Positions 9,504-52,746 of a stretch of DNA of 64,000 nucleotides are shown piece after piece. Both the position numbers and the translations under genes were made by a program. The DNA lies in the NCBI RefSeq assembly GCF_024502345.1, contig NZ_JALDNN010000001.1; one strand, written 5' to 3'. The DNA is from Escherichia coli. GTDB taxonomy: Bacteria > Pseudomonadota > Gammaproteobacteria > Enterobacterales > Enterobacteriaceae. The notes below the pieces were generated by a model. It searched no databases, was not told the DNA's origin, and was given only the letters and a program-made list of their open reading frames with translations. Within the stretch, counting starts at the first letter, position 1. The number at the start of each line of letters is the position of its first letter.

Positions 9504-10432
9504 CTTTCACCACTTCTGCTCCTGGCGATTTTCTTCTTTTGGTAGTGTCTCCTGGCTGCGGATATCAGATACTTTTCCGTCATTTTGTTGCAGAACTCTT
9601 CAATGTAGTTAATCATTTTCTGGTGTGCTTTCAGCTTTTCTTCCCCGGGGGACGCTTTCAGATAAATGTCCTCCTTTTCCACAAGCGCATTGACAAACTC
9701 CCCTAAACATCCCTGGTTATAAAGCGACGTGAAAAACAACACATCCCCCAGTCTCTCCAGTAACTGTGGTTTATCCCCGAAATGTTTTTTTATACTTTCA
9801 AAAGGTTTTCTATTTTCCGGATCAAAAAAAACACTTAATCCCAGTCGCTTATATTCCTGGTAAAAAAGTTCAAACGTCGGGGATGCTGAACGGCAAATAA
9901 ACGAAGACTGCGCCCATGGATTAAAATCTGTGACACGCCTCCCCTCCCGCACTTCCTGTCGTGTCAGCGGTGGTTCAGCAAACCAGGCGTCCAGCTCAGC
10001 CGAATCGTTATCCCTGCTCAAAACCTCATACAAACTGCCCGTGAACGGTTGAGCCGTTTGTTTTGTTGCTTCGCCTTCTGATTGTCTGAATCCATCCACT
10101 TTTCTCCGGATATTACGCGGAATCAGCATAAAAGGCGGGACATTAAGTGATAAACGTTTACCCGTCATGCGATACCATTGACCTACCTCAACCTTAATCC
10201 GTGTATCTGACCTTAGCTCAAGTGCCATTATGCTAAGCAGGTACAGATAACGCACCGTATAACGATTAAAATGTTTCTCCGGATCAAACGATTCGGACCG
10301 TTCTCCTCTGTACACGACTCTGCTGCGCTTCAGTATTCGCAGAGTATATTTCCAGGCCGGACTTTTACAAATGGCGGTAACTCTGGCCTTATTAACAATG
10401 TCGCGTAATGCATCAATCTGTTGTGCAGTCAT
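9500..10432 (-). CDS. Hypothetical protein, unknown function
   Basis: 310-aa ORF from ATG at 10432 with GGAGG 7 nt upstream; convergent with the preceding CDS and divergent from the GTPase gene. Confidence 0.4.
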   Translation of the reverse strand: MTAQQIDALRDIVNKARVTAICKSPAWKYTLRILKRSRVVYRGERSESFDPEKHFNRYTVRYLYLLSIMALELRSDTRIKVEVGQWYRMTGKRLSLNVPPFMLIPRNIRRKVDGFRQSEGEATKQTAQPFTGSLYEVLSRDNDSAELDAWFAEPPLTRQEVREGRRVTDFNPWAQSSFICRSASPTFELFYQEYKRLGLSVFFDPENRKPFESIKKHFGDKPQLLERLGDVLFFTSLYNQGCLGEFVNALVEKEDIYLKASPGEEKLKAHQKMINYIEEFCNKMTEKYLISAARRHYQKKKIARSRSGES

Positions 10433-10538
10433 CTCTTCCCTCCACACTTTGCCACTCCAGATTTTTTCACGCCCATATTACCTGAATGATAAACCGGATT
10501 AGTGTGATCCGGTTCAGTGAAATCAACAGGATACCGGT

Positions 10539-11423
10539 ATGTCATTCAGCCATTCTTCCCTCTCCGCACAAGTGAAATCATATCTGACGTTTCTTCCTGA
10601 AGAAATTCGCCAGAAAATCCTTGAACATCTCCACGGTGTTATTCATTACGAGCCCGTAATTGGCATTATGGGTAAATCCGGCACCGGCAAAAGCAGTCTG
10701 TGTAATGCCATTTTTCAGTCCCGTATCTGCGCCACGCATCCCCTGAACGGCTGCACCCGCCAGGCTCATCGTCTTACCCTGCAGCTCGGTGAACGCAGAA
10801 TGACGCTGGTCGATATGCCCGGCATTGGTGAGACACCGCAGCATGATCAGGAATACCGGGAGCTTTACCGTCAGTTACTGCCGGAACTGGATCTGATTAT
10901 CTGGATCCTGCGGGCTGATGAACGTGCGTATGCTGCTGATATTGCCATGCATCAGTTTTTACTGAATGAAGGTGCAGATCCCTCGCGTTTTCTGTTTGTT
11001 CTCAGCCATGCCGATCGCGTGTTTCCTGCTGAAGAATGGAACGACACAGAAAAATGCCCGTCCCGTCAGCAGGCGCTCTCACTGGCGACGGTGACAGCCC
11101 GGGTGGCAACCCTGTTCCCTTCATCATTTCCGGTACTCTCCGTTGCCGCACCTGTCGGCTGGAACCTTCCGGCGTTTGTGTCGCTGATGATCCACGCACT
11201 GCCACCACAGGCAACCAGTGCGGTTTATTCACATATCCGGGGGGAAAACCGCTCTGAACAGGCCCGGAAACACGCACAACAGACTTTTGGTGAAACCATC
11301 GGGAAAAGTTTTGACGACGCCGTTGCCCGTTTCAGTTTTCCGGCCTGGATGTTACAGCTTCTGCGCAAAACCCGGGACCGCATTATCCACCTGCTGGTCA
11401 CGCTGTGGGATCACCTGTTCTGA
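10539..11423 (+). CDS. YfjP/YkfA/YeeP-family GTPase (prophage-island GTP-binding protein)
   Basis: 294-aa ORF with P-loop GKSGTGKSS and switch motif DMPG; resembles CP4-type island GTPases. Confidence 0.8.
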   Translation: MSFSHSSLSAQVKSYLTFLPEEIRQKILEHLHGVIHYEPVIGIMGKSGTGKSSLCNAIFQSRICATHPLNGCTRQAHRLTLQLGERRMTLVDMPGIGETPQHDQEYRELYRQLLPELDLIIWILRADERAYAADIAMHQFLLNEGADPSRFLFVLSHADRVFPAEEWNDTEKCPSRQQALSLATVTARVATLFPSSFPVLSVAAPVGWNLPAFVSLMIHALPPQATSAVYSHIRGENRSEQARKHAQQTFGETIGKSFDDAVARFSFPAWMLQLLRKTRDRIIHLLVTLWDHLF

Positions 11424-11541
11424 ACGCCCCGGAGTCCCCCGTGGCAACCGTATACCTTTACACGACAACGGATTACGGTAACCACTGCCGTATACCGTCT
11501 GTCATTATCAATAACACGCTCTTTAATTTCAGAGGTCAGTC

Positions 11542-12219
11542 ATGAATACCAGAATTCTTTTTCCCCTGCTGTTCACTGTGGCATCATTCTCCGCCTCCGC
11601 CGGCAACTGGGCTGTCAAAAACGGCTGGTGTCAGACCATGACGGAAGATGGTCAGGCGCTGGTAATGCTGAAAAATGGCACGATTGGTATTACCGGCCTG
11701 ATGCAGGGATGCCCGAATAGCGTACAGACGCTCCTGGGCAACCGTATCAGTATTAACGGTAACCTGATCCCCACATCACAAATGTGTAATCAGCAGACAG
11801 GATTCAGGGCTGTTGAGGTGGAAGTCGGACAGGCGCCGGAAATGGTCAAAAAAGCCGTTCACTCCATAGCAGAGCGTGATGTGTCAGTTTTACAGGCATT
11901 TGGTGTACGAATGGAATTCACCCGCGGTGATATGCTGAAGGTCTGTCCGAAATTTGTCACATCACTTGCCGGTTTTTCCCCGAAACAGACACCCGCCATT
12001 AATAAAGATTCCGTCCTGCAGGCTGCCCGGCAGGCATACGCCCGGGAATATGACGAGGAAACAACAGAAACCGCTGATTTTGGCTCTTACGAAGTAAAAG
12101 GCAATAAGGTTGAGTTTGAAGTATTCAATCCTGAAGACCGTGCGTACGACAAAGTGACCGTCACGGTTGGTGCTGACGGTAATGCCACCGGCGCCAGCGT
12201 TGAATTTATCGGAAAATAG
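11542..12219 (+). CDS. Predicted secreted/periplasmic protein of unknown function
   Basis: 225-aa ORF with N-terminal signal peptide [20 protein letters not shown]; sits where CP4-type islands carry surface or lipoprotein genes. Confidence 0.5.
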
Positions 12220-12224
12220 CCGGT

Positions 12225-12458
12225 ATGTCGGACTGCCACCCTGTTTTATTGCCCGAAGGCCCTTTCTCACGCGAACAGGCGATGGCTGTCACAACAGCTT
12301 ACCACAATGTGCTTATTGAAGATGATCAGGGAACGCATTTCCGGCTGGTTATCCGCAATGCTGAAGGGCAGCTACGCTGGCGGTGCTGGAATTTTGAACC
12401 TGATGCCGGAAAACAGCTAAATCCGTATCTCGCCAGTGAGGGAATTCTCAGGCAATAA
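12225..12458 (+). CDS. DUF905-family protein (YkfF/YpjK-like)
   Basis: 77-aa [37 protein letters not shown]...WNFEPDAG matches the YkfF family. Confidence 0.7.
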
Positions 12459-12556
12459 ACGTCTTCATTTCATCCATCAGGCCACGTCTTCTCCGGGAGA
12501 CGTGGCTTTTTCATTTATTACACCAGTAAATCTTAATCACCAATAAGGAGCAAATC

Positions 12557-13375
12557 ATGCGATTAGCAAGTCGTTTTGGTTATGCGAACCAGATACGCCG
12601 TGACCGCCCCTTAACTCGCGAAGAACTGATGCAGGTCGTCCCCAGCGTATTCGGGGAAAATAAGCACACATCCAGAAGCGAGAACTATACCTGGATCCCC
12701 ACCATCACCGTGCTGGAAAGCCTGCAGCGGGAAGGCTTTCAGCCCTTCTTTGCCTGCCAGACCCGCGTACGTGACCCGGGCCGCCGGGGGTATACCAAAC
12801 ACATGCTGCGTCTGCGCCATGACGGGGAGATAAACGGACAACATGTCCCTGAAATCATCCTACTGAACTCCCATGACGGTACCTCCAGCTACCAGATGCT
12901 GCCGGGTTACTTCAGGTTCGTCTGCCAGAACGGCTGCGTCTGTGGTCAGTCTCTGGGGGAAGTGCGTGTTCCACACCGGGGAAATGTGGTGGACAGAGTC
13001 ATTGAAGGGGCTTACGAGGTGGTGGGCGTGTTTGACCGGATTGAGGAAAAGCGTGATGCCATGCAGTCGCTGGTCCTGCCGCCACCGGCACGCCAGGCGC
13101 TGGCACAGGCGGCGCTGACTTACCGTTATGGTGACGAACATCAGCCCGTCACCACCGCTGACATTCTGACACCACGACGCAGGGAGGATTACGGTAAGGA
13201 CCTGTGGAGTGCTTATCAGACCATCCAGGAGAATATGCTGAAAGGCGGGATTTCCGGGCGCAGCGCAAAAGGAAAACGTATCCATACCCGGGCCATTCAC
13301 AGCATCGGTACCGACATTAAGCTCAATCGCGCATTGTGGGTGATGGCAGAAACGCTGCTGGAGAGCATGCGCTGA
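12557..13375 (+). CDS. DUF932-family protein (YafZ/YfjQ-like)
   Basis: 272-aa ORF; size and position after DUF905 match YafZ/YfjQ of CP4-type islands. Confidence 0.65.
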   Translation: MRLASRFGYANQIRRDRPLTREELMQVVPSVFGENKHTSRSENYTWIPTITVLESLQREGFQPFFACQTRVRDPGRRGYTKHMLRLRHDGEINGQHVPEIILLNSHDGTSSYQMLPGYFRFVCQNGCVCGQSLGEVRVPHRGNVVDRVIEGAYEVVGVFDRIEEKRDAMQSLVLPPPARQALAQAALTYRYGDEHQPVTTADILTPRRREDYGKDLWSAYQTIQENMLKGGISGRSAKGKRIHTRAIHSIGTDIKLNRALWVMAETLLESMR

Positions 13376-13466
13376 TGCTGTTTCCCTGAAAGTACAGCCC
13401 TGACTCACGGCTGTACCAGTCTCCGGGCATTCTTCCATTCATTTACTTTTTATAAGGAATAACCTC

Positions 13467-13952
13467 ATGACAACCGTTTCGCATAATTCCACCACACCTT
13501 CTGTTTCCGTAACCGCTGCATCAGGGAATAACCCACCTCAGCTGGTTGCCACTCCCGTCCCTGATGAACAGTGCATCAGCTTCTGGCCGCAGCACTTTGG
13601 CCTCATTCCACAGTGGGTGACCCTGGAGCCCCGTATCTTCGGCTGGATGGACCGTCTGTGTGAAGACTACTGCGGTGGTATCTGGAATCTGTACACCCTG
13701 AACAACGGTGGGGCATTTATGGCACCCGAACCGGATGACGATGATGACGAAACATGGGTACTGTTCAATGCCATGAACGGTAACCGCGCTGAAATGAGTC
13801 CGGAAGCCGCCGGCATTGCTGCCTGTCTGATGACGTACAGTCATCATGCCTGTCGAACGGAGTGTTATGCCATGACGGTCCACTATTACCGGCTGCGGGA
13901 TTACGCCCTACAGCATCCGGAATGCAGCGCCATTATGCGCATCATCGACTGA
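13467..13952 (+). CDS. Antirestriction protein (KlcA/ArdB-like, YfjX/YafX family)
   Basis: 161-aa ORF; position and sequence resemble CP4 antirestriction proteins. Confidence 0.7.
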   Translation: MTTVSHNSTTPSVSVTAASGNNPPQLVATPVPDEQCISFWPQHFGLIPQWVTLEPRIFGWMDRLCEDYCGGIWNLYTLNNGGAFMAPEPDDDDDETWVLFNAMNGNRAEMSPEAAGIAACLMTYSHHACRTECYAMTVHYYRLRDYALQHPECSAIMRIID

Positions 13953-14444
13953 ATGGAGACAGGGACAATGCAGCAGCTTTCCTTTCTGCCCGGAGAGATG
14001 ACGCCCGGCGAGCGCAGTCTCATTCTGCGGGCCCTGAAAACCCTGGACCGCCATCTTCATGAACCCGGCGTGGCCTTCACCTCCACCCGTGCGGCACGGG
14101 AATGGCTGATTCTGAACATGGCGGGACTGGAGCGTGAAGAATTCCGGGTGCTGTATCTGAATAACCAGAATCAGCTGATTGCCGGTGAGACCCTCTTCAC
14201 AGGCACCATCAACCGCACGGAAGTCCATCCCCGGGAAGTGATTAAACGCGCCCTGTATCACAATGCCGCAGCCGTGGTGCTGGCACACAATCACCCGTCA
14301 GGTGAAGTCACACCCAGTAAGGCTGACCGCCTTATTACGGAACGTCTGGTACAGGCACTGGCCCTGGTGGATATCCGGGTGCCGGACCATCTGATAATCG
14401 GTGGCAGCCAGGTTTTCTCCTTTGCTGAACACGGTCTGCTTTAA
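13953..14444 (+). CDS. RadC-like JAB-domain protein (YeeS/YfjY/YkfG family)
   Basis: 163-aa ORF with JAMM-like motif HNHPSGEVTPSKAD. Confidence 0.8.
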   Translation: METGTMQQLSFLPGEMTPGERSLILRALKTLDRHLHEPGVAFTSTRAAREWLILNMAGLEREEFRVLYLNNQNQLIAGETLFTGTINRTEVHPREVIKRALYHNAAAVVLAHNHPSGEVTPSKADRLITERLVQALALVDIRVPDHLIIGGSQVFSFAEHGLL

Positions 14445-14512
14445 CCCGTCACCATCACAACCACATCACACTTGTTTTCACTTTTATCTTCTGTCTTCAG
14501 AGGTATCCCATC

Positions 14513-14734
14513 ATGAAAATTATCACCCGTGGTGAAGCCATGCGTATTCACCAACAGAATCCTGCATCCCGTCTTTTTCCGTTCTGTACCGGTAAGTACC
14601 GCTGGCACGGCAGTGCTGAAACGTATACCGGTCGTGAAGTGCAGGATATTCCCGGTGTGCTGGCCGTGTTTGCTGAACGCCGTAAGGACAGTTTTGGCCC
14701 GTATGTCCGGTTGATGAGCGTCACTCTGAACTGA
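14513..14734 (+). CDS. DUF987-family protein (YeeT/YpjJ-like)
   Basis: 73-aa ORF immediately upstream of the antitoxin, as in CP4-44 yeeT-yeeU. Confidence 0.7.
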   Translation: MKIITRGEAMRIHQQNPASRLFPFCTGKYRWHGSAETYTGREVQDIPGVLAVFAERRKDSFGPYVRLMSVTLN

Positions 14735-14752
14735 GTCAGAAAGGGGATTCTG

Positions 14753-15784
14753 ATGAGCAGCATTATCACCACCACAGTGTATACGCTGGATGAACTTTCC
14801 TGCCCTTCTGCACGGGAAAAAGCCCGCGACTGGTACCGTGTGCACCATTCTGACAGCAACTGGTATGAAAACGTGTACGAGGACTTCAGGGCGGTCTGTG
14901 GCATTTTCGGAATTGACCTCCGCCAGCGCGTTTTCCGGCTCAGCAACGGCAGGTTTATGGAAGAGCCGTGCATCTGGTTCAGCGGATTCTGCAGCCAGGG
15001 GGACGGAGCCTGTTTTGAAGGACGCTGGCACTGGCAGTCAGCAACAGCCAGGAGGCTCCGGGAGTATGCCACACAGGACCATGAACTCCATCGTATCGCG
15101 GATGCCCTGCAGGCGGTGCAGAAACGTAACTTCTGGCAACTGCAGGCTGAAATCCACCACCGGGGACGTTACTGCCATCCGTACAGCATGGATATCACTG
15201 TTACCCGGAACAGTCCGACTGGTCAGGCTATGACAGCCGATGCGGAAGCCGCTGTCAGCGAAGCCCTGCGCGACCTGGCCTTCTGGTTGTACCGTCAGCT
15301 GGAAAACGAGTACGACAGGCTGACCTCTGATGCCGCTGTTGATGAGGCCCTTCTCATCAACGAATACACCTTCACCGAAGCCGGTCTGCGCGCCGGCTTA
15401 CCTGAGGACTTTATCGTGTCAGACAAACTCCATGAGACAAATTATCCCGACGACCATAACGACCGCCTCTGGTGGGGACTGCTCTGCACCGTGACGCCCT
15501 GTTTCGGGGCACGTCTGGTGCAGGAGGGTAACCGGTTGCATTACCTTGTCGACCGCGCCGGCATCAGAGGCCTGTTCAGCGATGCAGATGCGTACCACCT
15601 GGACCAGGCCTTTCCGCTGCTGATGAAACAACTGGAGCTCATGCTCACCAGCGGTGAACTGAATCCCCGCCATCAGCATACCGTGACACTGTATGCGAAG
15701 GGGCTGACCTGTGAAGCCGACACCCTCGGCTCCTGTGGTTACGTTTATCTGGCTGTTTATCCGACGCCCGAAACGAAAAAGTAA
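14753..15784 (+). CDS. CbeA/YeeU/YfjZ-type antitoxin (core 15416-15784 from an internal GTG) read in frame with an upstream ~220-aa domain of unknown function
   Basis: C-terminal 122 aa (VSDKLHETNYPDDHNDRLWWGLLCTVTPCFGARLVQEGNRLHY...) match the CbeA antitoxin; there is no stop codon between the 14753 start and the antitoxin core. Confidence 0.6.
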   Translation: MSSIITTTVYTLDELSCPSAREKARDWYRVHHSDSNWYENVYEDFRAVCGIFGIDLRQRVFRLSNGRFMEEPCIWFSGFCSQGDGACFEGRWHWQSATARRLREYATQDHELHRIADALQAVQKRNFWQLQAEIHHRGRYCHPYSMDITVTRNSPTGQAMTADAEAAVSEALRDLAFWLYRQLENEYDRLTSDAAVDEALLINEYTFTEAGLRAGLPEDFIVSDKLHETNYPDDHNDRLWWGLLCTVTPCFGARLVQEGNRLHYLVDRAGIRGLFSDADAYHLDQAFPLLMKQLELMLTSGELNPRHQHTVTLYAKGLTCEADTLGSCGYVYLAVYPTPETKK

Positions 15785-15873
15785 CTCTCCAGAATAACCT
15801 TCTACTCCGGCCTGGTGCTTTCACCACGCCACTTTTCCATTTTTCATCTCTGCATATCAGGAAAATCTTCAGT

Positions 15874-16251
15874 ATGAAAACATTACCTGTATTACCCGGG
15901 CAGGCGGCCAGTTCACGCCCGTCTCCGGTTGAAATCTGGCAGACACTGCTCACCCGACTGCTGGATCAGCACTACGGCCTTACGCTGAATGACACACCGT
16001 TCGCTGATGAACGTGTGATTGAGCAGCATATTGAGGCAGGCATTTCACTGTGCGATGCGGTGAACTTTCTCGTTGAAAAATACGCACTGGTACGTACCGA
16101 CCAGCCGGGATTCAGCGCCTGTACCCGTTCTCAGTTAATAAACAGTATTGATATCCTCCGGGCACGCCGGGCAACCGGCCTGATGACACGCGACAACTAC
16201 AGAACGGTAAATAACATTACCCTGGGTAAACATCCGGGGGCGAAACAATGA
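15874..16251 (+). CDS. CbtA/YeeV/YkfI-family toxin (cytoskeleton-targeting type IV TA toxin)
   Basis: 125-aa ORF beginning MKTLPVLPGQAAS...; immediately downstream of the antitoxin. Confidence 0.8.
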   Translation: MKTLPVLPGQAASSRPSPVEIWQTLLTRLLDQHYGLTLNDTPFADERVIEQHIEAGISLCDAVNFLVEKYALVRTDQPGFSACTRSQLINSIDILRARRATGLMTRDNYRTVNNITLGKHPGAKQ

Positions 16252-16670
16252 AACTGGCCCTGACGCTGGAAGCCGACAGCATTAATGCGCAGGCGCTGAA
16301 CATGGGGCGCATTGTCGTTGACGTCGATGGTATTGAGCTCGCTGAACTGATTAACAAAGTCGCTGAAAACGGTTATTCACTCCGCGTGGTGGATGAACGT
16401 GACGCTACCGAAACACCGGCGACTTCTGCCAGCCCTCATCAGTTGCCGGAAGACAATACAGTGATACAGAGCGTGATGCCATTAACCACTGAAACAGCGC
16501 TGGATATCCTCATTGCGTGGCTGCAGGACAATATTGACTGCGAATCGGAAATTATCTTTGACAACAATGAGGACAAAACGGATTCGGCAGCACTGTTGCC
16601 CTGTATTGAACAGGCCAGGGAGGATATCCGTACCCTGCGCCAACTGCAGCTTCTGTACCAGAACCAGTGA
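16248..16670 (+). CDS. YeeW-like protein
   Basis: 140-aa acidic ORF overlapping the toxin stop by 4 bp, the position YeeW takes after yeeV. Confidence 0.55.
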   Translation: MKLALTLEADSINAQALNMGRIVVDVDGIELAELINKVAENGYSLRVVDERDATETPATSASPHQLPEDNTVIQSVMPLTTETALDILIAWLQDNIDCESEIIFDNNEDKTDSAALLPCIEQAREDIRTLRQLQLLYQNQ

Positions 16671-16754
16671 GTCTTACTCACCAGACTTCATTCCACTGAC
16701 GCCAGCCTGAACAGGGCTGGCGTTTTCATTTATCTGCAAAAAGGAATATCGATT

Positions 16755-17597
16755 ATGTCTGAAATCACAGCCCCCCGTCCGGAAGTGGTCAACGGGCATA
16801 CGGACGTTATCTGTTCAACCAGTATCCGCCACATTCTGGCTGTACGAAAGAGTACGCTGCTGCAAATCGACACACTTACCCGGCAACTGGCAGAAATCTC
16901 AGCAATGACAGAAAGTATTGGCGGTAAAACCGCACTGGACTGGGCGATGAAACAGGATTTTCGCTGTGGTTGCTGGCTGATGGAAAAACCTGAAACGGCA
17001 ATGAAAGCCATCACCCGCAATCTCGATCGCGAAATCTGGCGTGACCTGATGCAACGTTCCGGGATGCTGTCATTAATGGATGCGCAGGCCCGTGAGACAT
17101 GGTACCGGTCACTGGAGCACGATAATTTTCCGGAAATCAGTGAAGCGAACATTCTGAGCACATTTGAACAACTACACCAGAATAAGGATGAGGTGTTTGA
17201 GCGAGGGGTGATCAACGTCTTCAGGGGACTGAACTGGAATTACAAAACCAATTGCCCCTGCAAATTTGGCAGTAAAATTATCGTCAACAACCTAGTGAGG
17301 TGGGACCGGTGGGGGTTTCATCTTATCACCGGGCAACAGACTGACCGACTCGTCGACCTGGAAAGAATGCTACATCTGTTCAGCGGCAAACCGATCCCCG
17401 ACAACCGGGAAAACATCACTATTCGTCTGGATGGTCACATCCAGTCCGTTCAGGGTAAAGAGCGCTATGAAGACGAGATGTTCATCATTAAATACTTTAA
17501 GAAGGGATCTGCACACATCACTTTCAAAAGGCTGGAACTGATTGACAGAATTAACGATATAATAGCCAGGTACTTTCCTTCTGTACTCTCAGCCTGA
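16755..17597 (+). CDS. Hypothetical protein (conserved island-end protein, function unknown)
   Basis: 280-aa ORF with clean start context; last gene before IS1. Confidence 0.4.
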   Translation: MSEITAPRPEVVNGHTDVICSTSIRHILAVRKSTLLQIDTLTRQLAEISAMTESIGGKTALDWAMKQDFRCGCWLMEKPETAMKAITRNLDREIWRDLMQRSGMLSLMDAQARETWYRSLEHDNFPEISEANILSTFEQLHQNKDEVFERGVINVFRGLNWNYKTNCPCKFGSKIIVNNLVRWDRWGFHLITGQQTDRLVDLERMLHLFSGKPIPDNRENITIRLDGHIQSVQGKERYEDEMFIIKYFKKGSAHITFKRLELIDRINDIIARYFPSVLSA

Positions 17598-17876
17598 TCC
17601 CAAGTGTGATTCCCTTTCGATATCAAAAGGGACTGCGGGTATAATTGAGGGTACATTTTTAATCAAACCAAGTAAATTATATTAATATCAATATGATAAA
17701 AGAAATTTTCGATTCCGAGTCCGGCACCAAATTCATATAAACGGACCTCCACGGAGGTCCGTTTTTCGTTTCAGGACGCCACGATTTAAGCGTTCTGCCG
17801 CCAAATCAATTCTACCGAACTCAACCAGATTCTCCCCACATCACCAGCAATTTGCGGGCATGGTAATGACTCCAAC

Positions 17877-18380
17877 TTATTGATAGTGTTTTATGTTCAG
17901 ATAATGCCCGATGACTTTGTCATGCAGCTCCACCGATTTTGAGAACGACAGCGACTTCCGTCCCAGCCGTGCCAGGTGCTGCCTCAGATTCAGGTTATGC
18001 CGCTCAATTCGCTGCGTATATCGCTTGCTGATTACGTGCAGCTTTCCCTTCAGGCGGGATTCATACAGCGGCCAGCCATCCGTCATCCATATCACCACGT
18101 CAAAGGGTGACAGCAGGCTCATAAGACGCCCCAGCGTCGCCATAGTGCGTTCACCGAATACGTGCGCAACAACCGTCTTCCGGAGCCTGTCATACGCGTA
18201 AAACAGCCAGCGCTGGCGCGATTTAGCCCCGACGTATCCCCACTGTTCGTCCATTTCCGCGCAGACGATGACGTCACTGCCCGGCTGTATGCGCGAGGTT
18301 ACCGACTGCGGCCTGAGTTTTTTAAATGGCGGAAAATCGTGTTGAGGCCAACGCCCATAATGCGGGCGGTTGCCCGGCAT
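17877..18380 (-). CDS. insB: IS1 InsB (normally expressed as an InsAB' frameshift product)
   Basis: 167-aa ORF ending ...[15 protein letters not shown], with stop 15 nt from the IS end. Confidence 0.9.
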
Positions 18381-18574
18381 CCAACGCCATTCATGGCCAT
18401 ATCAATGATTTTCTGGTGCGTACCGGGTTGAGAAGCGGTGTAAGTGAACTGCAGTTGCCATGTTTTACGGCAGTGAGAGCAGAGATAGCGCTGATGTCCG
18501 GCGGTGCTTTTGCCGTTACGCACCACCCCGTCAGTAGCTGAACAGGAGGGACAGCTGATAGAAACAGAAGCCAC
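18299..18574 (-). CDS. insA: IS1 InsA
   Basis: 91-aa [46 protein letters not shown]... Confidence 0.9.
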
Positions 18575-18704
18575 TGGAGCACCTCAAAAACACCATCATA
18601 CACTAAATCAGTAAGTTGGCAGCATCACCAATCATTCTTACTCCCTTTGAATTACCCGCCTCATCAGAGATAATGCTTAAGAAATTTGTCACACAAGGAA
18701 GCTG

Positions 18705-43985: not shown

Positions 43986-44163
<178 letters not shown>

Positions 44164-44227
44164 AGCCTCTCATCTGTATAAATTTCGAACTACACTTAAC
44201 TGGCTTCTCTTAACTGAGGTCACCATC

Positions 44228-44671
44228 ATGCCGTTAAGTCCCTACCTCTCTTTTGCCGGTAACTGTGCCGACGCAATTGCTTATTATCAACGTACGTTGG
44301 GCGCTGAACTGCTCTATAAAATCAGCTTCGGCGAAATGCCAAAATCAGCGCAGGACAGCGCCGAGAACTGCCCTTCCGGAATGCAATTTCCCGATACCGC
44401 CATCGCCCACGCCAATGTGCGCATTGCCGGAAGCGACATCATGATGAGCGATGCCATGCCGTCAGGAAAAGCCAGCTACTCCGGCTTTACGCTGGTGCTC
44501 GATTCGCAACAGGTCGAAGAAGGAAAACGCTGGTTTGACAATCTTGCCGCTAACGGAAAAATCGAAATGGCCTGGCAGGAAACTTTCTGGGCGCATGGCT
44601 TTGGCAAAGTCACCGATAAATTTGGCGTACCGTGGATGATTAATGTCGTCAAACAACAACCAACGCAATAA
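44228..44671 (+). CDS. yjdN: YjdN (PhnB), glyoxalase-fold protein
   Basis: 147-aa ORF between phnA and phnC. Confidence 0.85.
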   Translation: MPLSPYLSFAGNCADAIAYYQRTLGAELLYKISFGEMPKSAQDSAENCPSGMQFPDTAIAHANVRIAGSDIMMSDAMPSGKASYSGFTLVLDSQQVEEGKRWFDNLAANGKIEMAWQETFWAHGFGKVTDKFGVPWMINVVKQQPTQ

Positions 44672-44726
44672 TCCGCCGGGAGGCCCGCCCTCCCGCACTG
44701 TCATCGAATTCCCGTTAACTCTTCAT

Positions 44727-44763
44727 CTGTTAGTCACTTTTAATTAACCAAATCGTCACAATA
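44727..44763 (+). promoter_or_regulatory. Probable Pho box (PhoB binding site) of the phnC promoter
   Basis: ctgttagtcac...aatcgtcacaat direct-repeat motif about 40-80 bp upstream of phnC, followed by RBS gggagg. Confidence 0.5.
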
Positions 44764-44803
44764 ATCCGCCACGATGGAGCCACTTTTTTAGGGAGGCTGC
44801 ATC

Positions 44804-45592
44804 ATGCAAACGATTATCCGTGTCGAGAAGCTCGCCAAAACCTTCAATCAGCATCAGGCGCTGCATGCGGTTGATCTGAACATTCATCACGGTGAAATGG
44901 TGGCTCTGCTTGGGCCGTCGGGTTCCGGCAAATCCACCCTTTTACGTCATTTAAGCGGTTTGATTACCGGCGATAAATCCGCCGGTAGCCATATCGAGCT
45001 ACTGGGCCGCACTGTCCAGCGCGAAGGCCGCCTGGCCCGCGATATCCGCAAAAGCCGCGCCAACACCGGCTACATCTTCCAACAATTCAACCTGGTGAAC
45101 CGCCTGAGCGTACTGGAGAACGTGCTGATTGGCGCGCTCGGCAGCACGCCGTTCTGGCGCACCTGTTTTAGCTGGTTCACCGGCGAGCAGAAACAGCGCG
45201 CGTTACAGGCGCTGACCCGCGTTGGCATGGTGCATTTTACCCATCAGCGCGTTTCCACCCTCTCCGGCGGCCAGCAGCAGCGTGTGGCGATTGCCCGCGC
45301 GCTGATGCAGCAGGCGAAGGTGATTCTGGCCGATGAACCGATCGCCTCGCTGGACCCGGAATCGGCGCGCATCGTGATGGACACCCTGCGCGACATAAAC
45401 CAGAACGACGGCATCACCGTGGTCGTCACGCTGCATCAGGTGGATTACGCCCTGCGCTACTGCGAGCGCATCGTCGCCCTGCGTCAGGGGCACGTCTTCT
45501 ACGACGGCAGCAGCCAACAGTTTGATAACGAACGTTTTGACCATCTCTACCGCAGCATTAACCGCGTCGAAGAGAACGCGAAAGCTGCCTGA
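44804..45592 (+). CDS. phnC: Phosphonate ABC transporter ATP-binding protein PhnC
   Basis: 262-aa ABC ATPase ORF with Walker [10 protein letters not shown]. Confidence 0.95.
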
Positions 45593-45616
45593 CATCCCCA
45601 TCATTGAGGAAAACGA

Positions 45617-46633
45617 ATGAACGCTAAGATAATTGCCTCGCTGGCCTTCACCAGCATGTTCAGCCTCAGCACCCTGTTAACCCCGGCGCATGCCGAAGAG
45701 CAGGAAAAGGCGCTGAATTTCGGCATTATTTCAACGGAATCACAGCAAAACCTGAAACCGCAATGGACGCCGTTTTTACAGGATATGGAGAAGAAGCTGG
45801 GCGTGAAGGTCAACGCCTTCTTTGCCCCGGATTACGCGGGCATTATCCAGGGAATGCGCTTCAACAAAGTGGATATCGCCTGGTACGGCAACCTGTCGGC
45901 GATGGAAGCGGTGGATCGCGCCAACGGTCAGGTCTTCGCTCAGACCGTAGCGGCGGACGGATCGCCGGGTTACTGGAGCGTGTTGATCGTCAACAAAGAT
46001 AGCCCGATCAACAACCTGAACGATCTGCTGGCGAAGCGGAAAGATCTCACCTTCGGCAATGGCGATCCTAACTCCACCTCTGGCTTCCTCGTCCCCGGTT
46101 ACTACGTCTTTGCCAAAAACAATATCTCCGCTAACGACTTTAAGCGCACCGTCAACGCCGGGCATGAAACCAACGCGCTGGCCGTCGCCAACAAGCAGGT
46201 GGATGTTGCCACCAACAACACCGAAAACCTCGACAAGCTGAAAACCTCCGCGCCGGAGAAGTTGAAAGAACTGAAAGTGATCTGGAAGTCGCCGCTGATC
46301 CCAGGCGATCCGATCGTCTGGCGCAAAAATCTTTCCGAAACCACCAAAGACAAGATCTACGACTTCTTTATGAACTACGGCAAAACGCCGGAAGAAAAAG
46401 CGGTGCTGGAACGCCTGGGCTGGGCACCGTTTCGCGCTTCCAGCGACCTGCAACTGGTGCCGATTCGCCAGCTCGCGCTGTTTAAAGAGATGCAGGGCGT
46501 GAAAAGCAATAAAGGACTGAATGAGCAGGACAAGCTGGCAAAAACCACCGAGATTCAGGCGCAGCTGGATGACCTGGACCGCCTGAACAACGCGCTAAGC
46601 GCGATGAGTTCGGTGAGTAAAGCGGTGCAGTAA
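45617..46633 (+). CDS. phnD: Phosphonate ABC transporter periplasmic binding protein PhnD
   Basis: 338-aa ORF with signal peptide. Confidence 0.95.
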   Translation: MNAKIIASLAFTSMFSLSTLLTPAHAEEQEKALNFGIISTESQQNLKPQWTPFLQDMEKKLGVKVNAFFAPDYAGIIQGMRFNKVDIAWYGNLSAMEAVDRANGQVFAQTVAADGSPGYWSVLIVNKDSPINNLNDLLAKRKDLTFGNGDPNSTSGFLVPGYYVFAKNNISANDFKRTVNAGHETNALAVANKQVDVATNNTENLDKLKTSAPEKLKELKVIWKSPLIPGDPIVWRKNLSETTKDKIYDFFMNYGKTPEEKAVLERLGWAPFRASSDLQLVPIRQLALFKEMQGVKSNKGLNEQDKLAKTTEIQAQLDDLDRLNNALSAMSSVSKAVQ

Positions 46634-46635
46634 AT

Positions 46636-46726
46636 CGTAGGTCGGATAAGACGCCCCGGCGTCGCATCCGACAATGTGCAGGCGTTGATGCCGGATGCGG
46701 TGCAAGCACCTTATCCGGCCTACAGA
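46636..46726. repeat. REP elements between phnD and phnE
   Basis: gtaggtcggataagacg...gcgtcgcatccgaca and gatgccggatgcgg...ttatccggcctaca motifs. Confidence 0.75.
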
Positions 46727-46738
46727 CCGGAGCCAAAC

Positions 46739-47518
46739 ATGCAAACCATCACCATCGCCCCACCCAAGCGCAGCTGGTTCTCGCTTCTGAGCTGGGCCGT
46801 TGTACTCGCCGTGCTGGTCGTCTCGTGGCAGGGCGCGGAAATGGCCCCGCTCACGCTGATTAAAGACGGCGGCAACATGGCGACTTTCGCCGCCGACTTC
46901 TTCCCGCCTGATTACAGCCAGTGGCAGGATTACCTCACCGAAATGCTCGTCACGCTGCAAATCGCCGTCTGGGGCACGGCGCTGGCGGTGGTGCTCTCCA
47001 TCCCCTTCGGCCTGATGAGCGCCGAAAACCTGGTGCCGTGGTGGGTTTACCAGCCCGTTCGCCGCCTGATGGACGCCTGCCGCGCCATTAACGAAATGGT
47101 CTTCGCCATGCTGTTCGTGGTCGCCGTCGGCCTCGGCCCGTTCGCTGGCGTGTTGGCGCTGTTTATCCACACCACCGGCGTGCTCTCCAAACTGCTTTCC
47201 GAAGCGGTGGAAGCGATTGAACCCGGCCCGGTGGAAGGCATTCGCGCCACCGGCGCCAACAAGCTGGAAGAGATCCTTTACGGCGTGCTGCCACAGGTAA
47301 TGCCGCTGCTGATCTCCTACTCCCTCTATCGCTTCGAATCCAACGTCCGCTCGGCGACCGTCGTCGGCATGGTCGGTGCAGGCGGGATCGGCGTCACCCT
47401 GTGGGAAGCGATTCGCGGTTTCCAGTTCCAACAAACCTGCGCCCTGATGGTGCTTATCATCGTCACGGTCAGCCTGCTGGATTTCCTCTCTCAACGGTTG
47501 CGTAAGCACTTTATCTGA
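46739..47518 (+). CDS. phnE: Phosphonate ABC transporter permease PhnE (single continuous reading frame)
   Basis: 259-aa continuous [28 protein letters not shown]...; no frameshift visible. Confidence 0.9.
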
Positions 47519-47538
47519 TAAGCGAGGCATTGATATCT

Positions 47539-48264
47539 ATGCACTTGTCTACACATCCGACCAGCTACCCAACACGCTATCAGGAGATAGCCGCAAAACT
47601 TGAGCAGGAGCTTCGTCAACACTACCGCTGCGGCGACTATCTTCCCGCCGAGCAGCAACTGGCGGCGCGCTTTGAGGTGAACCGCCACACCCTGCGCCGC
47701 GCCATCGACCAACTGGTGGAAAAAGGCTGGGTACAGCGCCGTCAGGGCGTCGGCGTGCTGGTGCTGATGCGCCCGTTCGATTACCCGCTCAACGCCCAGG
47801 CGCGTTTTAGCCAGAACCTGCTGGATCAGGGCAGCCATCCCACCAGCGAAAAACTGCTGTCAGTATTGCGCCCGGCCTCCGGTCACGTCGCTGACGCGCT
47901 GGGGATCAAGGAGGGCGAGAACGTTATCCACCTGCGCACCCTGCGCCGGGTCAACGGCATCGCGCTCTGTTTAATCGACCACTACTTCGCGGACCTCACC
48001 CTCTGGCCGACGCTGCAACGCTTCGACAGCGGCTCGCTGCACGATTTTCTGCGCGAGCAAACCGGGATTGCACTGCGCCGCAGCCAGACACGGATCAGCG
48101 CCCGCCGCGCCCAGGCCAAAGAGTGCCAGCGTCTTGAAATCCCGAATATGTCGCCGCTGCTGTGCGTGCGCACCCTTAACCACCGTGACGGTGAAAGCAG
48201 CCCGGCGGAGTACTCCGTCAGCCTGACGCGCGCCGACATGATTGAATTCACTATGGAGCACTGA
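47539..48264 (+). CDS. phnF: GntR-family regulator PhnF
   Basis: 241-aa ORF with N-terminal GntR HTH. Confidence 0.9.
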   Translation: MHLSTHPTSYPTRYQEIAAKLEQELRQHYRCGDYLPAEQQLAARFEVNRHTLRRAIDQLVEKGWVQRRQGVGVLVLMRPFDYPLNAQARFSQNLLDQGSHPTSEKLLSVLRPASGHVADALGIKEGENVIHLRTLRRVNGIALCLIDHYFADLTLWPTLQRFDSGSLHDFLREQTGIALRRSQTRISARRAQAKECQRLEIPNMSPLLCVRTLNHRDGESSPAEYSVSLTRADMIEFTMEH

Positions 48265-48717
48265 ATGCACGCAGATACCGCGACCCGCCAGCACTGGATG
48301 TCCGTACTGGCACACAGCCAACCGGCAGAACTGGCAGCCCGCCTGAACGCGCTGAACATCACCGCCGACTATGAGGTGATCCGCGCCGCCGAAACCGGCC
48401 TGGTGCAGATTCAGGCGCGAATGGGCGGCACCGGCGAACGCTTTTTTGCCGGCGACGCCACGCTCACCCGCGCCGCCGTACGCCTGACTGACGGCACGCT
48501 CGGCTACAGCTGGGTGCTGGGGCGCGACAAACAGCACGCCGAACGCTGCGCGCTGATTGACGCGCTGATGCAGCAATCTCGCCACTTTCAAAACTTATCA
48601 GAAACGCTTATTGCCCCGCTGGACGCTGACCGTATGGCACGCATTGCCGCACGCCAGGCCGAAGTGAACGCCAGCCGGGTCGACTTCTTTACGATGGTTC
48701 GCGGAGACAACGCATGA
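48265..48717 (+). CDS. phnG: C-P lyase complex subunit PhnG
   Basis: 150-aa ORF; operon position. Confidence 0.9.
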
Positions 48718-49298
48718 CCCTGGAAACCGCTTTTATGCTTCCCGTGCAGGATGCCCAGCACAGTTTTCGTCGCCTGTTAAAGGCCATGAGCGAGCCGGGC
48801 GTGATTGTCGCCCTGCATCAGCTTAAACGCGGCTGGCAGCCGCTGAATATCGCCACCACCAGCGTGCTGCTGACGCTGGCCGATAACGACACGCCGGTGT
48901 GGCTTTCTGCCCCATTAAGTAACGATATAGTCAGCCAGAGCCTGCGTTTTCATACCAACGCGCCGCTGGTCAGCCAGCCGGAACAGGCGACCTTCGCGGT
49001 AACGGATGAGGCGATTTCCAGCGAACAGCTTAACGCCCTTTCAACCGGCACCGCCGTTGCGCCGGAAGCGGGCGCGACGCTGATTTTACAGGTCGCCAGC
49101 CTGAGCGGCGGGCGCATGTTGCGCCTCACCGGCGCGGGCATTGCCGAAGAACGAATGATCGCCCCGCTGCTGCCGGAGTGCATTCTGCACGAACTCACCG
49201 AGCGCCCGCACCCGTTCCCGCTCGGCATCGACCTGATCCTGACCTGCGGCGAGCGCCTGCTGGCTATTCCGCGAACCACTCATGTGGAGGTGTGCTGA
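48714..49298 (+). CDS. phnH: C-P lyase complex subunit PhnH
   Basis: 194-aa ORF overlapping phnG stop. Confidence 0.9.
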
Positions 49299-50362
49299 TG
49301 TACGTTGCCGTGAAAGGGGGCGAAAAGGCGATCGATGCCGCACACGCCCTGCAAGAGAGCCGACGCCGGGGCGATACCGATTTGCCTGAACTGAGCGTCG
49401 CCCAGATTGAACAGCAGCTTAATCTTGCGGTGGATCGCGTGATGACCGAAGGCGGCATTGCCGACCGCGAACTGGCGGCGCTGGCGCTGAAACAGGCCAG
49501 CGGCGATAACGTCGAAGCAATTTTCCTGCTGCGCGCCTACCGCACCACGCTGGCGAAGCTGGCGGTGAGCGAACCGCTCGACACCACCGAGATGCGTCTC
49601 GAACGGCGTATCTCCGCTGTTTATAAAGATATTCCCGGCGGCCAACTGCTTGGCCCAACCTACGACTACACCCATCGCCTGCTCGATTTCACCCTGCTGG
49701 CAAACGGCGAAGCGCCGACGCTGACCACCGCCGACAGCGAACAACAGCCGTCGCCGCACATTTTCAGCCTGCTGGCGCGTCAGGGGCTGGCGAAGTTTGA
49801 AGAGGATAGCGGCGCACAGCCGGATGACATCACCCGCACGCCGCCGGTTTACCCCTGCTCACGTTCTTCCCGTTTGCAGCAGTTGATGCGCGGCGACGAA
49901 GGCTATTTGCTGGCGCTGGCCTACTCCACCCAACGCGGTTACGGGCGCAACCACCCGTTCGCGGGTGAAATCCGCAGTGGTTACATCGACGTGTCGATTG
50001 TGCCGGAAGAGCTGGGATTTGCGGTGAACGTCGGCGAATTGCTGATGACTGAGTGTGAAATGATCAACGGTTTTATCGACCCGCCGGGTGAGCCGCCGCA
50101 CTTCACGCGCGGCTACGGGCTGGTGTTCGGCATGAGCGAGCGCAAAGCGATGGCGATGGCGCTGGTCGATCGTGCGTTGCAGGCTCCGGAGTACGGCGAG
50201 CACGCGACAGGCCCGGCGCAGGATGAAGAGTTCGTGCTGGCGCATGCCGACAACGTCGAAGCCGCAGGCTTTGTCTCGCACCTCAAACTCCCGCACTACG
50301 TCGATTTCCAGGCCGAACTGGAGCTACTCAAACGTCTGCAACAGGAGCAGAACCATGGCTAA
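49298..50362 (+). CDS. phnI: C-P lyase complex subunit PhnI
   Basis: 354-aa ORF from ATG at 49298 ([16 protein letters not shown]...). Confidence 0.9.
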   Translation: MYVAVKGGEKAIDAAHALQESRRRGDTDLPELSVAQIEQQLNLAVDRVMTEGGIADRELAALALKQASGDNVEAIFLLRAYRTTLAKLAVSEPLDTTEMRLERRISAVYKDIPGGQLLGPTYDYTHRLLDFTLLANGEAPTLTTADSEQQPSPHIFSLLARQGLAKFEEDSGAQPDDITRTPPVYPCSRSSRLQQLMRGDEGYLLALAYSTQRGYGRNHPFAGEIRSGYIDVSIVPEELGFAVNVGELLMTECEMINGFIDPPGEPPHFTRGYGLVFGMSERKAMAMALVDRALQAPEYGEHATGPAQDEEFVLAHADNVEAAGFVSHLKLPHYVDFQAELELLKRLQQEQNHG

Positions 50363-51200
50363 TCTGAGCGGCTACAACTTTGCCTACCTCGACGAGCAGA
50401 CCAAACGCATGATCCGCCGCGCCATCTTAAAAGCGGTGGCGATCCCCGGTTATCAGGTGCCGTTTGGCGGGCGTGAGATGCCGATGCCGTACGGCTGGGG
50501 AACCGGCGGTATTCAGCTTACCGCCAGCGTGATTGGCGAAAGCGACGTGTTGAAGGTGATTGACCAGGGCGCGGATGACACCACCAACGCCGTGTCGATT
50601 CGCAACTTTTTCAAGCGCGTGACCGGGGTAAACACCACCGAGCGCACGGACGATGCAACGGTCATCCAGACGCGTCACCGCATCCCCGAAACGCCGCTGA
50701 CCGAAGATCAGATAATTATTTTCCAGGTGCCGATCCCGGAACCACTGCGCTTTATCGAGCCGCGCGAAACGGAAACCCGCACCATGCACGCGCTGGAGGA
50801 GTACGGCGTGATGCAGGTGAAACTGTATGAAGATATCGCCCGCTTCGGTCATATCGCCACTACCTACGCCTATCCGGTGAAGGTGAACGGGCGCTACGTA
50901 ATGGACCCATCGCCGATCCCGAAATTCGATAACCCGAAAATGGACATGATGCCCGCCCTGCAACTGTTCGGCGCCGGGCGTGAGAAGCGCATCTATGCGG
51001 TGCCGCCGTTTACCCGCGTGGAAAGCCTCGATTTCGACGATCACCCGTTCACCGTTCAGCAGTGGGATGAGCCATGCGCCATCTGCGGATCGACCCACAG
51101 CTATCTTGATGAAGTGGTGCTGGATGACGCCGGAAACCGCATGTTTGTCTGCTCCGATACCGATTATTGCCGCCAACAGAGCGAGGCAAAAAGCCAATGA
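50355..51200 (+). CDS. phnJ: C-P lyase PhnJ (radical SAM-like Fe-S enzyme)
   Basis: 281-aa ORF from MANLSGYNFAYLDEQTKRMIRRA; C-terminal Cys cluster CAICGS...CSDTDYC. Confidence 0.9.
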   Translation: MANLSGYNFAYLDEQTKRMIRRAILKAVAIPGYQVPFGGREMPMPYGWGTGGIQLTASVIGESDVLKVIDQGADDTTNAVSIRNFFKRVTGVNTTERTDDATVIQTRHRIPETPLTEDQIIIFQVPIPEPLRFIEPRETETRTMHALEEYGVMQVKLYEDIARFGHIATTYAYPVKVNGRYVMDPSPIPKFDNPKMDMMPALQLFGAGREKRIYAVPPFTRVESLDFDDHPFTVQQWDEPCAICGSTHSYLDEVVLDDAGNRMFVCSDTDYCRQQSEAKSQ

Positions 51201-51955
51201 ATCAACCGTTACTTTCGGTCAATAACCTGACCCACCTTTACGCGCCGGGCAAAGGCTTTAGCGATGTCTCTTTTGATTTATGGCCGGGGGAAGTGCTGGG
51301 CATTGTCGGGGAATCCGGTTCCGGGAAGACCACGCTGCTGAAATCAATTTCCGCGCGTCTGACGCCGCAGCAGGGGGAGATTCACTATGAAAACCGTTCC
51401 CTCTATGGCATGAGCGAGGCCGACCGCCGTCGCCTGCTGCGCACCGAATGGGGCGTGGTGCATCAGCATCCGCTCGACGGCCTGCGCCGCCAGGTGTCGG
51501 CAGGCGGCAATATCGGCGAGCGGCTGATGGCGACCGGGGCACGTCATTACGGCGATATTCGCGCCACCGCGCAGAAGTGGCTGGAAGAGGTGGAAATTCC
51601 CGCCAACCGGATCGACGACCTGCCGACCACCTTTTCCGGCGGCATGCAGCAGCGTTTGCAGATTGCCCGCAACCTGGTGACGCATCCGAAGCTGGTGTTT
51701 ATGGATGAACCGACCGGCGGGCTGGATGTGTCGGTGCAGGCGCGCCTGCTCGACCTGCTGCGCGGCCTGGTGGTGGAGCTGAATCTGGCGGTGGTGATTG
51801 TCACCCACGATTTAGGCGTCGCCCGCCTGCTGGCGGACCGTTTGCTGGTGATGAAGCAGGGGCAAGTGGTGGAGAGTGGGTTAACCGACCGCGTGCTCGA
51901 CGACCCGCACCATCCGTATACACAACTGCTGGTGTCATCGGTTTTGCAGAATTGA
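51197..51955 (+). CDS. phnK: ATP-binding protein PhnK
   Basis: 252-aa ABC-type ATPase (GESGSGKTT). Confidence 0.9.
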
Positions 51956-51960
51956 GCCGG

Positions 51961-52045
<85 letters not shown>

Positions 52046-52065
52046 CCCGAACCACGAGGCGAAAA

Positions 52066-52746
52066 ATGATTAACGTACAAAACGTCAGTAAAACCTTCAT
52101 CCTGCACCAGCAAAACGGCGTGCGCCTGCCCGTCCTCAACCGCGCCTCGCTCACCGTCAACGCGGGCGAATGCGTGGTGCTCCACGGCCATTCCGGCAGC
52201 GGAAAATCAACCCTGCTACGCTCGCTGTACGCCAACTATCTGCCCGACGAAGGGCAAATCCAGATCAAACACGGTGACGAATGGGTCGATCTGGTCACCG
52301 CGCCAGCGCGCAAAGTGGTGGAAATCCGCAAAACCACCGTTGGCTGGGTGAGCCAGTTTCTGCGCGTCATCCCGCGTATTTCAGCACTGGAAGTGGTAAT
52401 GCAGCCGCTGCTCGATACCGGCGTACCGCGTGAAGCCTGCGCCGCTAAAGCCGCGCGTCTGCTCACCCGCCTGAACGTGCCGGAACGCCTGTGGCATCTG
52501 GCGCCATCGACCTTCTCCGGCGGCGAACAGCAGCGCGTCAACATCGCCCGCGGCTTTATCGTCGACTACCCGATTCTGCTGCTCGACGAACCTACCGCCT
52601 CGCTGGACGCTAAAAACAGCGCCGCCGTAGTGGAACTGATCCGCGAAGCCAAAGCCCGTGGCGCAGCCATCGTCGGCATCTTCCATGACGAAGCCGTACG
52701 TAATGACGTCGCCGACCGCCTGCACCCAATGGGAGCCTCTTCATGA
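52066..52746 (+). CDS. phnL: ATP-binding protein PhnL
   Basis: 226-aa ABC-type ATPase from [11 protein letters not shown]... Confidence 0.9.

Follow-up and report, generated by a model that had tools for sequence, protein, structure and literature searches.

We consider it very probable that phnE in the 64-kb stretch of Escherichia coli DNA analysed here (64,000 nucleotides; referred to below as the window) is an intact ON allele situated within a whole phn operon, and the strain is accordingly predicted, with the same high confidence, to use phosphonates without a prior slippage mutation. At the level of the sequence this prediction is well supported, since the phnE frame is open, the 13 other phn genes are whole, and the promoter is identical to that of E. 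coli K-12.

The phnE coding sequence occupies positions 46739 to 47518 on the + strand, and both the ORF list and the sequence itself give it as a single frame that opens with ATG and, after 259 codons, closes with the stop codon TGA (780 bp), and whose product is the predicted membrane permease of the PhnCDE ABC importer. A GGAG Shine-Dalgarno motif, read from the sequence at 46729 to 46732 (+), lies 6 nt 5' of this ATG, and the RefSeq annotation of the phnE ortholog of strain KL53 has the same start and length. The ORF list runs the frame further upstream to a GTG codon at 46676, from which a protein of 280 aa would result. Since this GTG is located inside a REP element and is not preceded by a ribosome-binding site of the Shine-Dalgarno type, we favor the 259-aa reading and regard the longer one as unlikely.

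When compared with the NCBIfam equivalog model for PhnE (TIGR01097), the 259-aa product reaches 312 bits, with the cutoff set at 216.7, and the match extends from end to end (residues 16-258 correspond to model positions 8-251 of 252). The protein also contains a full PF00528 (BPD_transp_1) domain (residues 88-258; 91.8 bits), covering positions 2-178 of the 184 positions of this model, and an EAA-type coupling loop that is conserved in the orthologs can be read in its translation. The genes phnC, phnD, and phnF are immediately adjacent to phnE, and phnG to phnP follow, which is the setting of the phn C-P lyase operon. By every criterion open to sequence analysis, the phnE gene of the window thus belongs to the PhnE family, and its product is predicted to be the transmembrane component of a type I ABC importer that is encoded together with the ATPase PhnC and the binding protein PhnD.

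Alignment and tract extraction revealed a tract of two 8-bp repeat units, GCTGGCGT GTTGGCGC, at positions 47144 to 47159 (+) of the window; these two units are imperfect copies that have 6 of 8 positions in common. In phnE of the K-12 strain MG1655, a gene listed in RefSeq as a frameshifted pseudogene, three tandem units (GCTGGCGT GCTGGCGT GCTGGCGC) are found after gene position 405, and the sole indel in the alignment of the two genes corresponds to one 8-bp unit, GCTGGCGT. The sequence-only reading had stated that phnE of K-12 is broken by a short insertion; this insertion is indeed present, it is 8 bp in length, and it shifts the frame after approximately residue 137. The shifted K-12 frame comes to its end after 189 aa; its product matches only positions 2-58 of the 184 positions of PF00528 (21 bits; cutoff 26.4), so that the EAA coupling loop and the C-terminal helices are missing. 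Among the two-, three-, and four-unit states, the frame is open only with two units. The phnE gene of the window carries two units, the three-unit tract is absent, and it does not belong to the cryptic (OFF) class represented by K-12. Over the repeat tract, a weak hairpin was called at 47143-47158; this call is a pattern match that includes G-T pairs, and we do not accept it as real.

The other components of the importer are encoded directly upstream of phnE. The gene for the ATP-binding subunit, phnC (44804 to 45592, +; NF007438, 605 bits), specifies a protein with 98.9% amino acid identity to that of K-12 over its full length and without gaps, and the gene for the periplasmic phosphonate-binding protein, phnD (45617 to 46633, +; TIGR03431, 376 bits), specifies a full-length product with 99.4% identity. 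Downstream of phnE follow phnF, encoding a GntR-family regulator (47539 to 48264, +; NF007486, 518 bits; 99.2% amino acid identity to K-12), and the ten genes phnGHIJKLMNOP of the C-P lyase pathway (48265 to 55617, +), which are full-length and ungapped in comparison with K-12. The scores of PhnC, PhnD, and PhnF are far above the curated cutoffs. In tblastn searches with the K-12 proteins, each of the 13 phn genes other than phnE was recovered at full length with 0 gaps and 0 internal stops, at identities between 97.9 and 100%. With phnC and phnD intact and phnE continuous, the earlier statement that the PhnCDE transporter is complete holds, and all 14 genes of the phnCDEFGHIJKLMNOP cluster are present and uninterrupted. 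The only oddity is the first codon of phnN, where the annotated ATG is changed to ATA at positions 53879-53881 (ATGATG in K-12; ATAATG in the window); translation of phnN probably starts at the next codon, the ATG at 53882, which would yield a protein of 184 instead of 185 aa.

By comparison with K-12, a promoter region with Pho-box-like repeats (CTGTTAGTCAC...TCGTCAC) can be placed in front of phnC at positions 44727 to 44803 (+), and every base of the yjdN-phnC intergenic region from 44673 to the phnC start codon is the same as in K-12. A consensus promoter scan detected no sigma-70 consensus in the phnC promoter region, a finding that fits an activator-dependent (PhoB-dependent) promoter. 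On the basis of the literature and of general knowledge, we take the repeats to be Pho boxes and the same K-12 sequence to be under PhoB control. The spacer between phnD and phnE is filled by a REP pair with inverted repeats (46640 to 46720, − strand), which is recognized by the Rfam model naRNA4 (RF02564) with 69.1 bits at a gathering score of 59.5. Stabilization of messages by REP hairpins has been proposed for other ABC operons, and the hairpin located after phnD could likewise make the phnCD message upstream of it more stable than that of phnE. Two additional REP/BIME copies (RF02564) are present between yjdM and yjdN, at 43988-44064 and 44088-44164.

Three other explanations have to be weighed against the reading of phnE as a functional ON allele. 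The continuity of the gene might be an artefact, if the ORF arose by chance or if one frameshift is compensated by a second indel. Chance long ORFs are certainly possible in this GC-rich stretch, as is illustrated by an antisense ORF of 311 aa (46595-47530, − strand) that overlaps phnE. For this antisense frame, no Pfam match was found at E ≤ 1, while the frame on the + strand is matched from end to end by TIGR01097; the score of this match rules out a chance origin of phnE, and it is the antisense ORF that represents the shadow. A compensated frameshift is excluded as well, since no indel separates the window from the six intact alleles of KL53, CFT073, SE15, O157, O145, and FDAARGOS_944, and the encoded proteins differ at only 0-3 amino acid positions. 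We therefore regard an artefact as extremely improbable. Alignment with K-12 phnE, proposed in the sequence-only reading as the way to recognize a compensated frameshift, yielded nothing beyond the single 8-bp indel, and the ORF list, the TIGR01097 match, and the alignments agree with its description of phnE as a continuous 259-aa frame free of frameshifts.

A permease encoded by an open frame could still be impaired by an amino acid substitution, in which case the strain would be Phn-minus or leaky. PhnE of the window differs from that of the K-12 8-bp-deletion revertant at just two positions, F59Y and A70L. The leucine at position 70, where most E. coli have alanine, falls into a column that is variable in the ortholog panel. 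Codon 59 (TAC, Tyr; 46913 to 46915, +) deserves closer attention: Tyr59 is private to the haplotype of the window, the remaining E. coli alleles that we examined all have phenylalanine here, as do 16 of the 18 sequences of the ortholog panel, and the residue is part of the conserved N-terminal motif ADFFPPDF, where it adjoins the invariant segment A52-P57. Set against this conservation, the change from Phe to Tyr is conservative, the ortholog from Endozoicomonas has leucine at this position, the identical PhnE protein is encoded by no fewer than 24 contigs, which derive from independent isolates and from gut metagenomes, and it recurs without other change, and the remainder of the phn operon is without any sign of decay. 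An effect of F59Y on function is unlikely, and we consider a strain impaired through this substitution to be quite improbable. It is also conceivable that phnE is functional and that phosphonates nevertheless are not used, either as a consequence of the altered phnN start or of a lesion elsewhere, for instance in phoBR. The loss of the first phnN ATG is in line with such a defect, and phoB, phoR, and other trans-acting requirements are located outside the 64-kb window to which our analysis pertains. The in-frame ATG at 53882, on the other hand, costs PhnN a single residue, all other phn genes are intact behind a promoter identical to that of K-12, and the Pho regulon belongs to the core of E. 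coli and is present in nearly all strains. A defect of this kind appears to us as improbable as an impairment by F59Y.

Following the reading of phnE as a functional ON allele, the gene would provide the permease of a PhnC-PhnD-PhnE importer whose genes open the phn (C-P lyase) operon of 14 genes. With two 8-bp units, the frame would remain open and the 259-aa permease would be made; with three or four units, the frame would shift after approximately residue 137, the protein would lose its C-terminal membrane helices together with the cytoplasmic EAA coupling loop, and phosphonates could not enter the cell via the truncated PhnE protein. When phosphate becomes limiting, the phn operon would be expressed from its presumed PhoB-dependent promoter, PhnCDE would import phosphonates (and phosphate), and the C-P lyase would cleave the imported phosphonates, with the predicted transport and growth requiring no prior slippage mutation.

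The phnE+ allele and the 8-bp-deletion revertants of K-12 are reportedly the subject of work by Makino in 1991 and by Iqbal in 2004. In experiments, the phnE gene of a K-12 8-bp-deletion revertant re-established transport (Stasi et al., 2019; PMC6469041). Slippage from three to two units is highly frequent, and it is selected for when phosphate is limiting or phosphonates are the only phosphorus source; PhnCDE takes up orthophosphate as well, and its loss may be favored in the presence of fosfomycin (PMC6469041; PMC4759930; 2019 bioRxiv preprint).

We assessed the distribution of the tract alleles with a K-12 query of 104 bp that has the repeat tract at its centre and for which an 8-bp gap in the match separates the alleles; 5,337 complete E. 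coli records were matched. Two units (a 96-bp span) were present in 4,328 of these records (81%), and three units (K-12 type, at least 95% identity) in the other 1,009 (19%). The intact two-unit phnE gene is hence the ordinary majority state, and it is less special than the sequence-only reading had implied; most E. coli isolates have also been described as phnE+ (PMC6469041). The insertion had been ascribed to K-12 laboratory strains. It is indeed found in K-12, but it is not confined there: about 19% of the complete records carry it, and the carriers include human and clinical, cattle, pig, dog, wastewater, and seawater isolates. A search with the whole K-12 phnE gene returned 999 records that are at least 99% identical over 788 bp, which places 999 of the approximately 1,009 three-unit alleles on one K-12-like haplotype. 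Two-unit copies of this haplotype number at most about 100, as estimated from the match ranking, and roughly 10 three-unit alleles are found outside of it in more than 4,000 records. The OFF state looks as if it were clonally inherited in a natural clade, more than frequently switched.

Strain SW07163 (wastewater, Galapagos; NZ_CM129852.1) possesses a phnE gene with four units, (GCTGGCGT)x3 followed by GCTGGCGC; it spans positions 51-846 of the extracted locus (796 bp) and is annotated as frameshifted. This allele shows that the tract is able to expand past the K-12 state, and the unit copy number of phnE across E. coli is thus 2, 3, and 4. No copy-number variants of the window's own phnE haplotype were seen. 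Five phnE matches are located on records labelled as plasmids, for example NZ_CP083871.1 (H179; 18,002 bp), and one of the five, on a record of 18 kb, is a three-unit phnE gene of the K-12 type. These records may be mislabelled chromosomal fragments.

The second repeat unit of the window contains a silent C-to-T substitution at position 47153 (+), which converts a CTG into a TTG leucine codon. In the common ON allele, GCTGGCG is perfectly repeated with a period of 8, while the window has GCTGGCG...GTTGGCG; the substitution thereby reduces the longest perfectly repeated stretch from 7 to 5 bp (TGGCG). An exact 45-mer with the T variant was found in 59 of 2,887 E. coli records, the latter being the number of records that can be seeded by so short a query. 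Among them are the O145:H28 STEC lineage, KL53, E. coli C with the strains derived from it (C, C122, NCTC122, WG5), and a scatter of other isolates. The tract of O157 has a different interruption, GCTGGTGT, in its first unit. Since slippage depends on the identity of the repeats, silent variants of the tract may be more stably ON. It is possible, though rather doubtful, that the T variant constitutes a "locked-ON" phnE allele with a much lower rate of slippage to the OFF state than that of the common two-unit allele; the pair of tracts at issue is GCTGGCGTGCTGGCGC versus GCTGGCGTGTTGGCGC. With 59 T-variant records and about 10 three-unit alleles outside the K-12 haplotype, the population data are without power on this point. 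If true, phnE would represent a naturally occurring contingency locus, with silent substitutions tuning the rate at which it switches, and such a view would join the locked-ON variant with the three-unit OFF clade and the four-unit allele.

Variation in the length of PhnE is also found apart from the 8-bp tract. E. coli proteins of 284, 241, 234, and 229 aa (P0003, P0030, P0049, and P0056) are on record; the first contains an in-frame duplication of 25 aa, and the others result from in-frame deletions of 18, 25, and 30 aa, respectively. The boundaries of the 25-aa variants coincide with the direct repeat CCACCGGCG, whose copies are found at positions 47172 and 47247 of the window (75 bp apart), and those of the 18-aa variant with the direct repeat GCCTGATG at 47010 and 47064 (54 bp apart). 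The 234-aa protein is recorded on more than 100 contigs. It seems that phnE has been rearranged repeatedly in nature via repeats, with the boundary repeats matched for the 25-aa and 18-aa variants.

The chromosomal surroundings of the operon are those of E. coli. Positions 18,628-44,084 are collinear with strain FDAARGOS_944 from dcuS to yjdM (99.0% identity), and positions 56,700-64,000 (yjcS, mdtNOP) are up to 99.3% identical to other E. coli. The phn operon is only 97.5-98.0% identical to its nearest complete genome. From these values, we conclude that the strain is an E. coli with a phn haplotype that is uncommon among complete genomes. An origin from an Escherichia other than E. coli, which the best operon identity of 98.0% might have indicated, was rejected in view of the flanking identities of 99.0-99.3% and of a contig of GCA_050022275.1 that is 100% identical to the operon over 6.8 kb. 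The greater divergence of the operon (44,000-56,500) than of its flanks suggests a mosaic, recombinant history. The phnE gene by itself is 99.0% identical to that of KL53, a strain different from the nearest genome for the operon.

Downstream of phnP (55,700-56,720), the homology to K-12 ends within rpiB, at position 56299. Missing here are the als (allose) operon and the 5' portion of rpiB, and a 105-aa RpiB-like ORF (56162-56479, − strand) is directly followed by yjcS; FDAARGOS_944 is organized in the same way. At the other end of the window, approximately 18.6 kb (1-18,628) with a boundary just beyond dcuS are absent at this site from FDAARGOS_944. The best matches of this segment carry genes for GTPase-family, DUF4942, and DUF932 proteins and for restriction endonucleases, together with IS66, a gene content typically seen in integrative islands of the CP4-like kind. 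Nowhere in the 64-kb window was a tRNA gene found.

The 8-bp slippage switch and the class of functional phnE alleles are already known, and our finding is nothing new in kind; on its own it has little weight, as the gene is broken in the K-12 reference and the strain simply has its normal, wild-type form. What is added is small: allele frequencies, a natural OFF clade, a four-unit allele, and silent variants that interrupt the tract. The population figures provide a modest correction to the notion that the defect is a peculiarity of laboratory strains. The intact state of phnE in the strain is of use for annotation, where the pseudogene status of K-12 phnE should not be transferred by homology, and in metabolic models of the strain, the uptake of phosphonate, phosphite, and phosphate via PhnCDE should be switched on.

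A sequence search of the PDB found no PhnE structure, and the nearest solved relatives are MetI permeases. MetI of the MetNI system (PDB 3DHW/6CVL) resembles PhnE in the region of the BPD_transp_1 fold (residues 125-254; E = 5e-6), but it is a distant relative and has no counterpart of the N-terminal part of PhnE with its ADFFPPD motif. The cryptic phnE gene of K-12 is much closer, with approximately 97.6% identity outside the indel and with the same flanking genes and promoter; it is set apart from the window by the additional GCTGGCGT unit, the end of its frame at 189 aa, and the loss of the permease domain. The closest correspondence is to the functional phnE+ class of E. coli B, most natural isolates, and K-12 revertants (PMC6469041), with which the gene of the window shares its position in the operon, its length of 780 bp and 259 aa, and its two repeat units, and from which it is distinguished by the C-to-T substitution at 47153, the private F59Y exchange, and the leucine at position 70.
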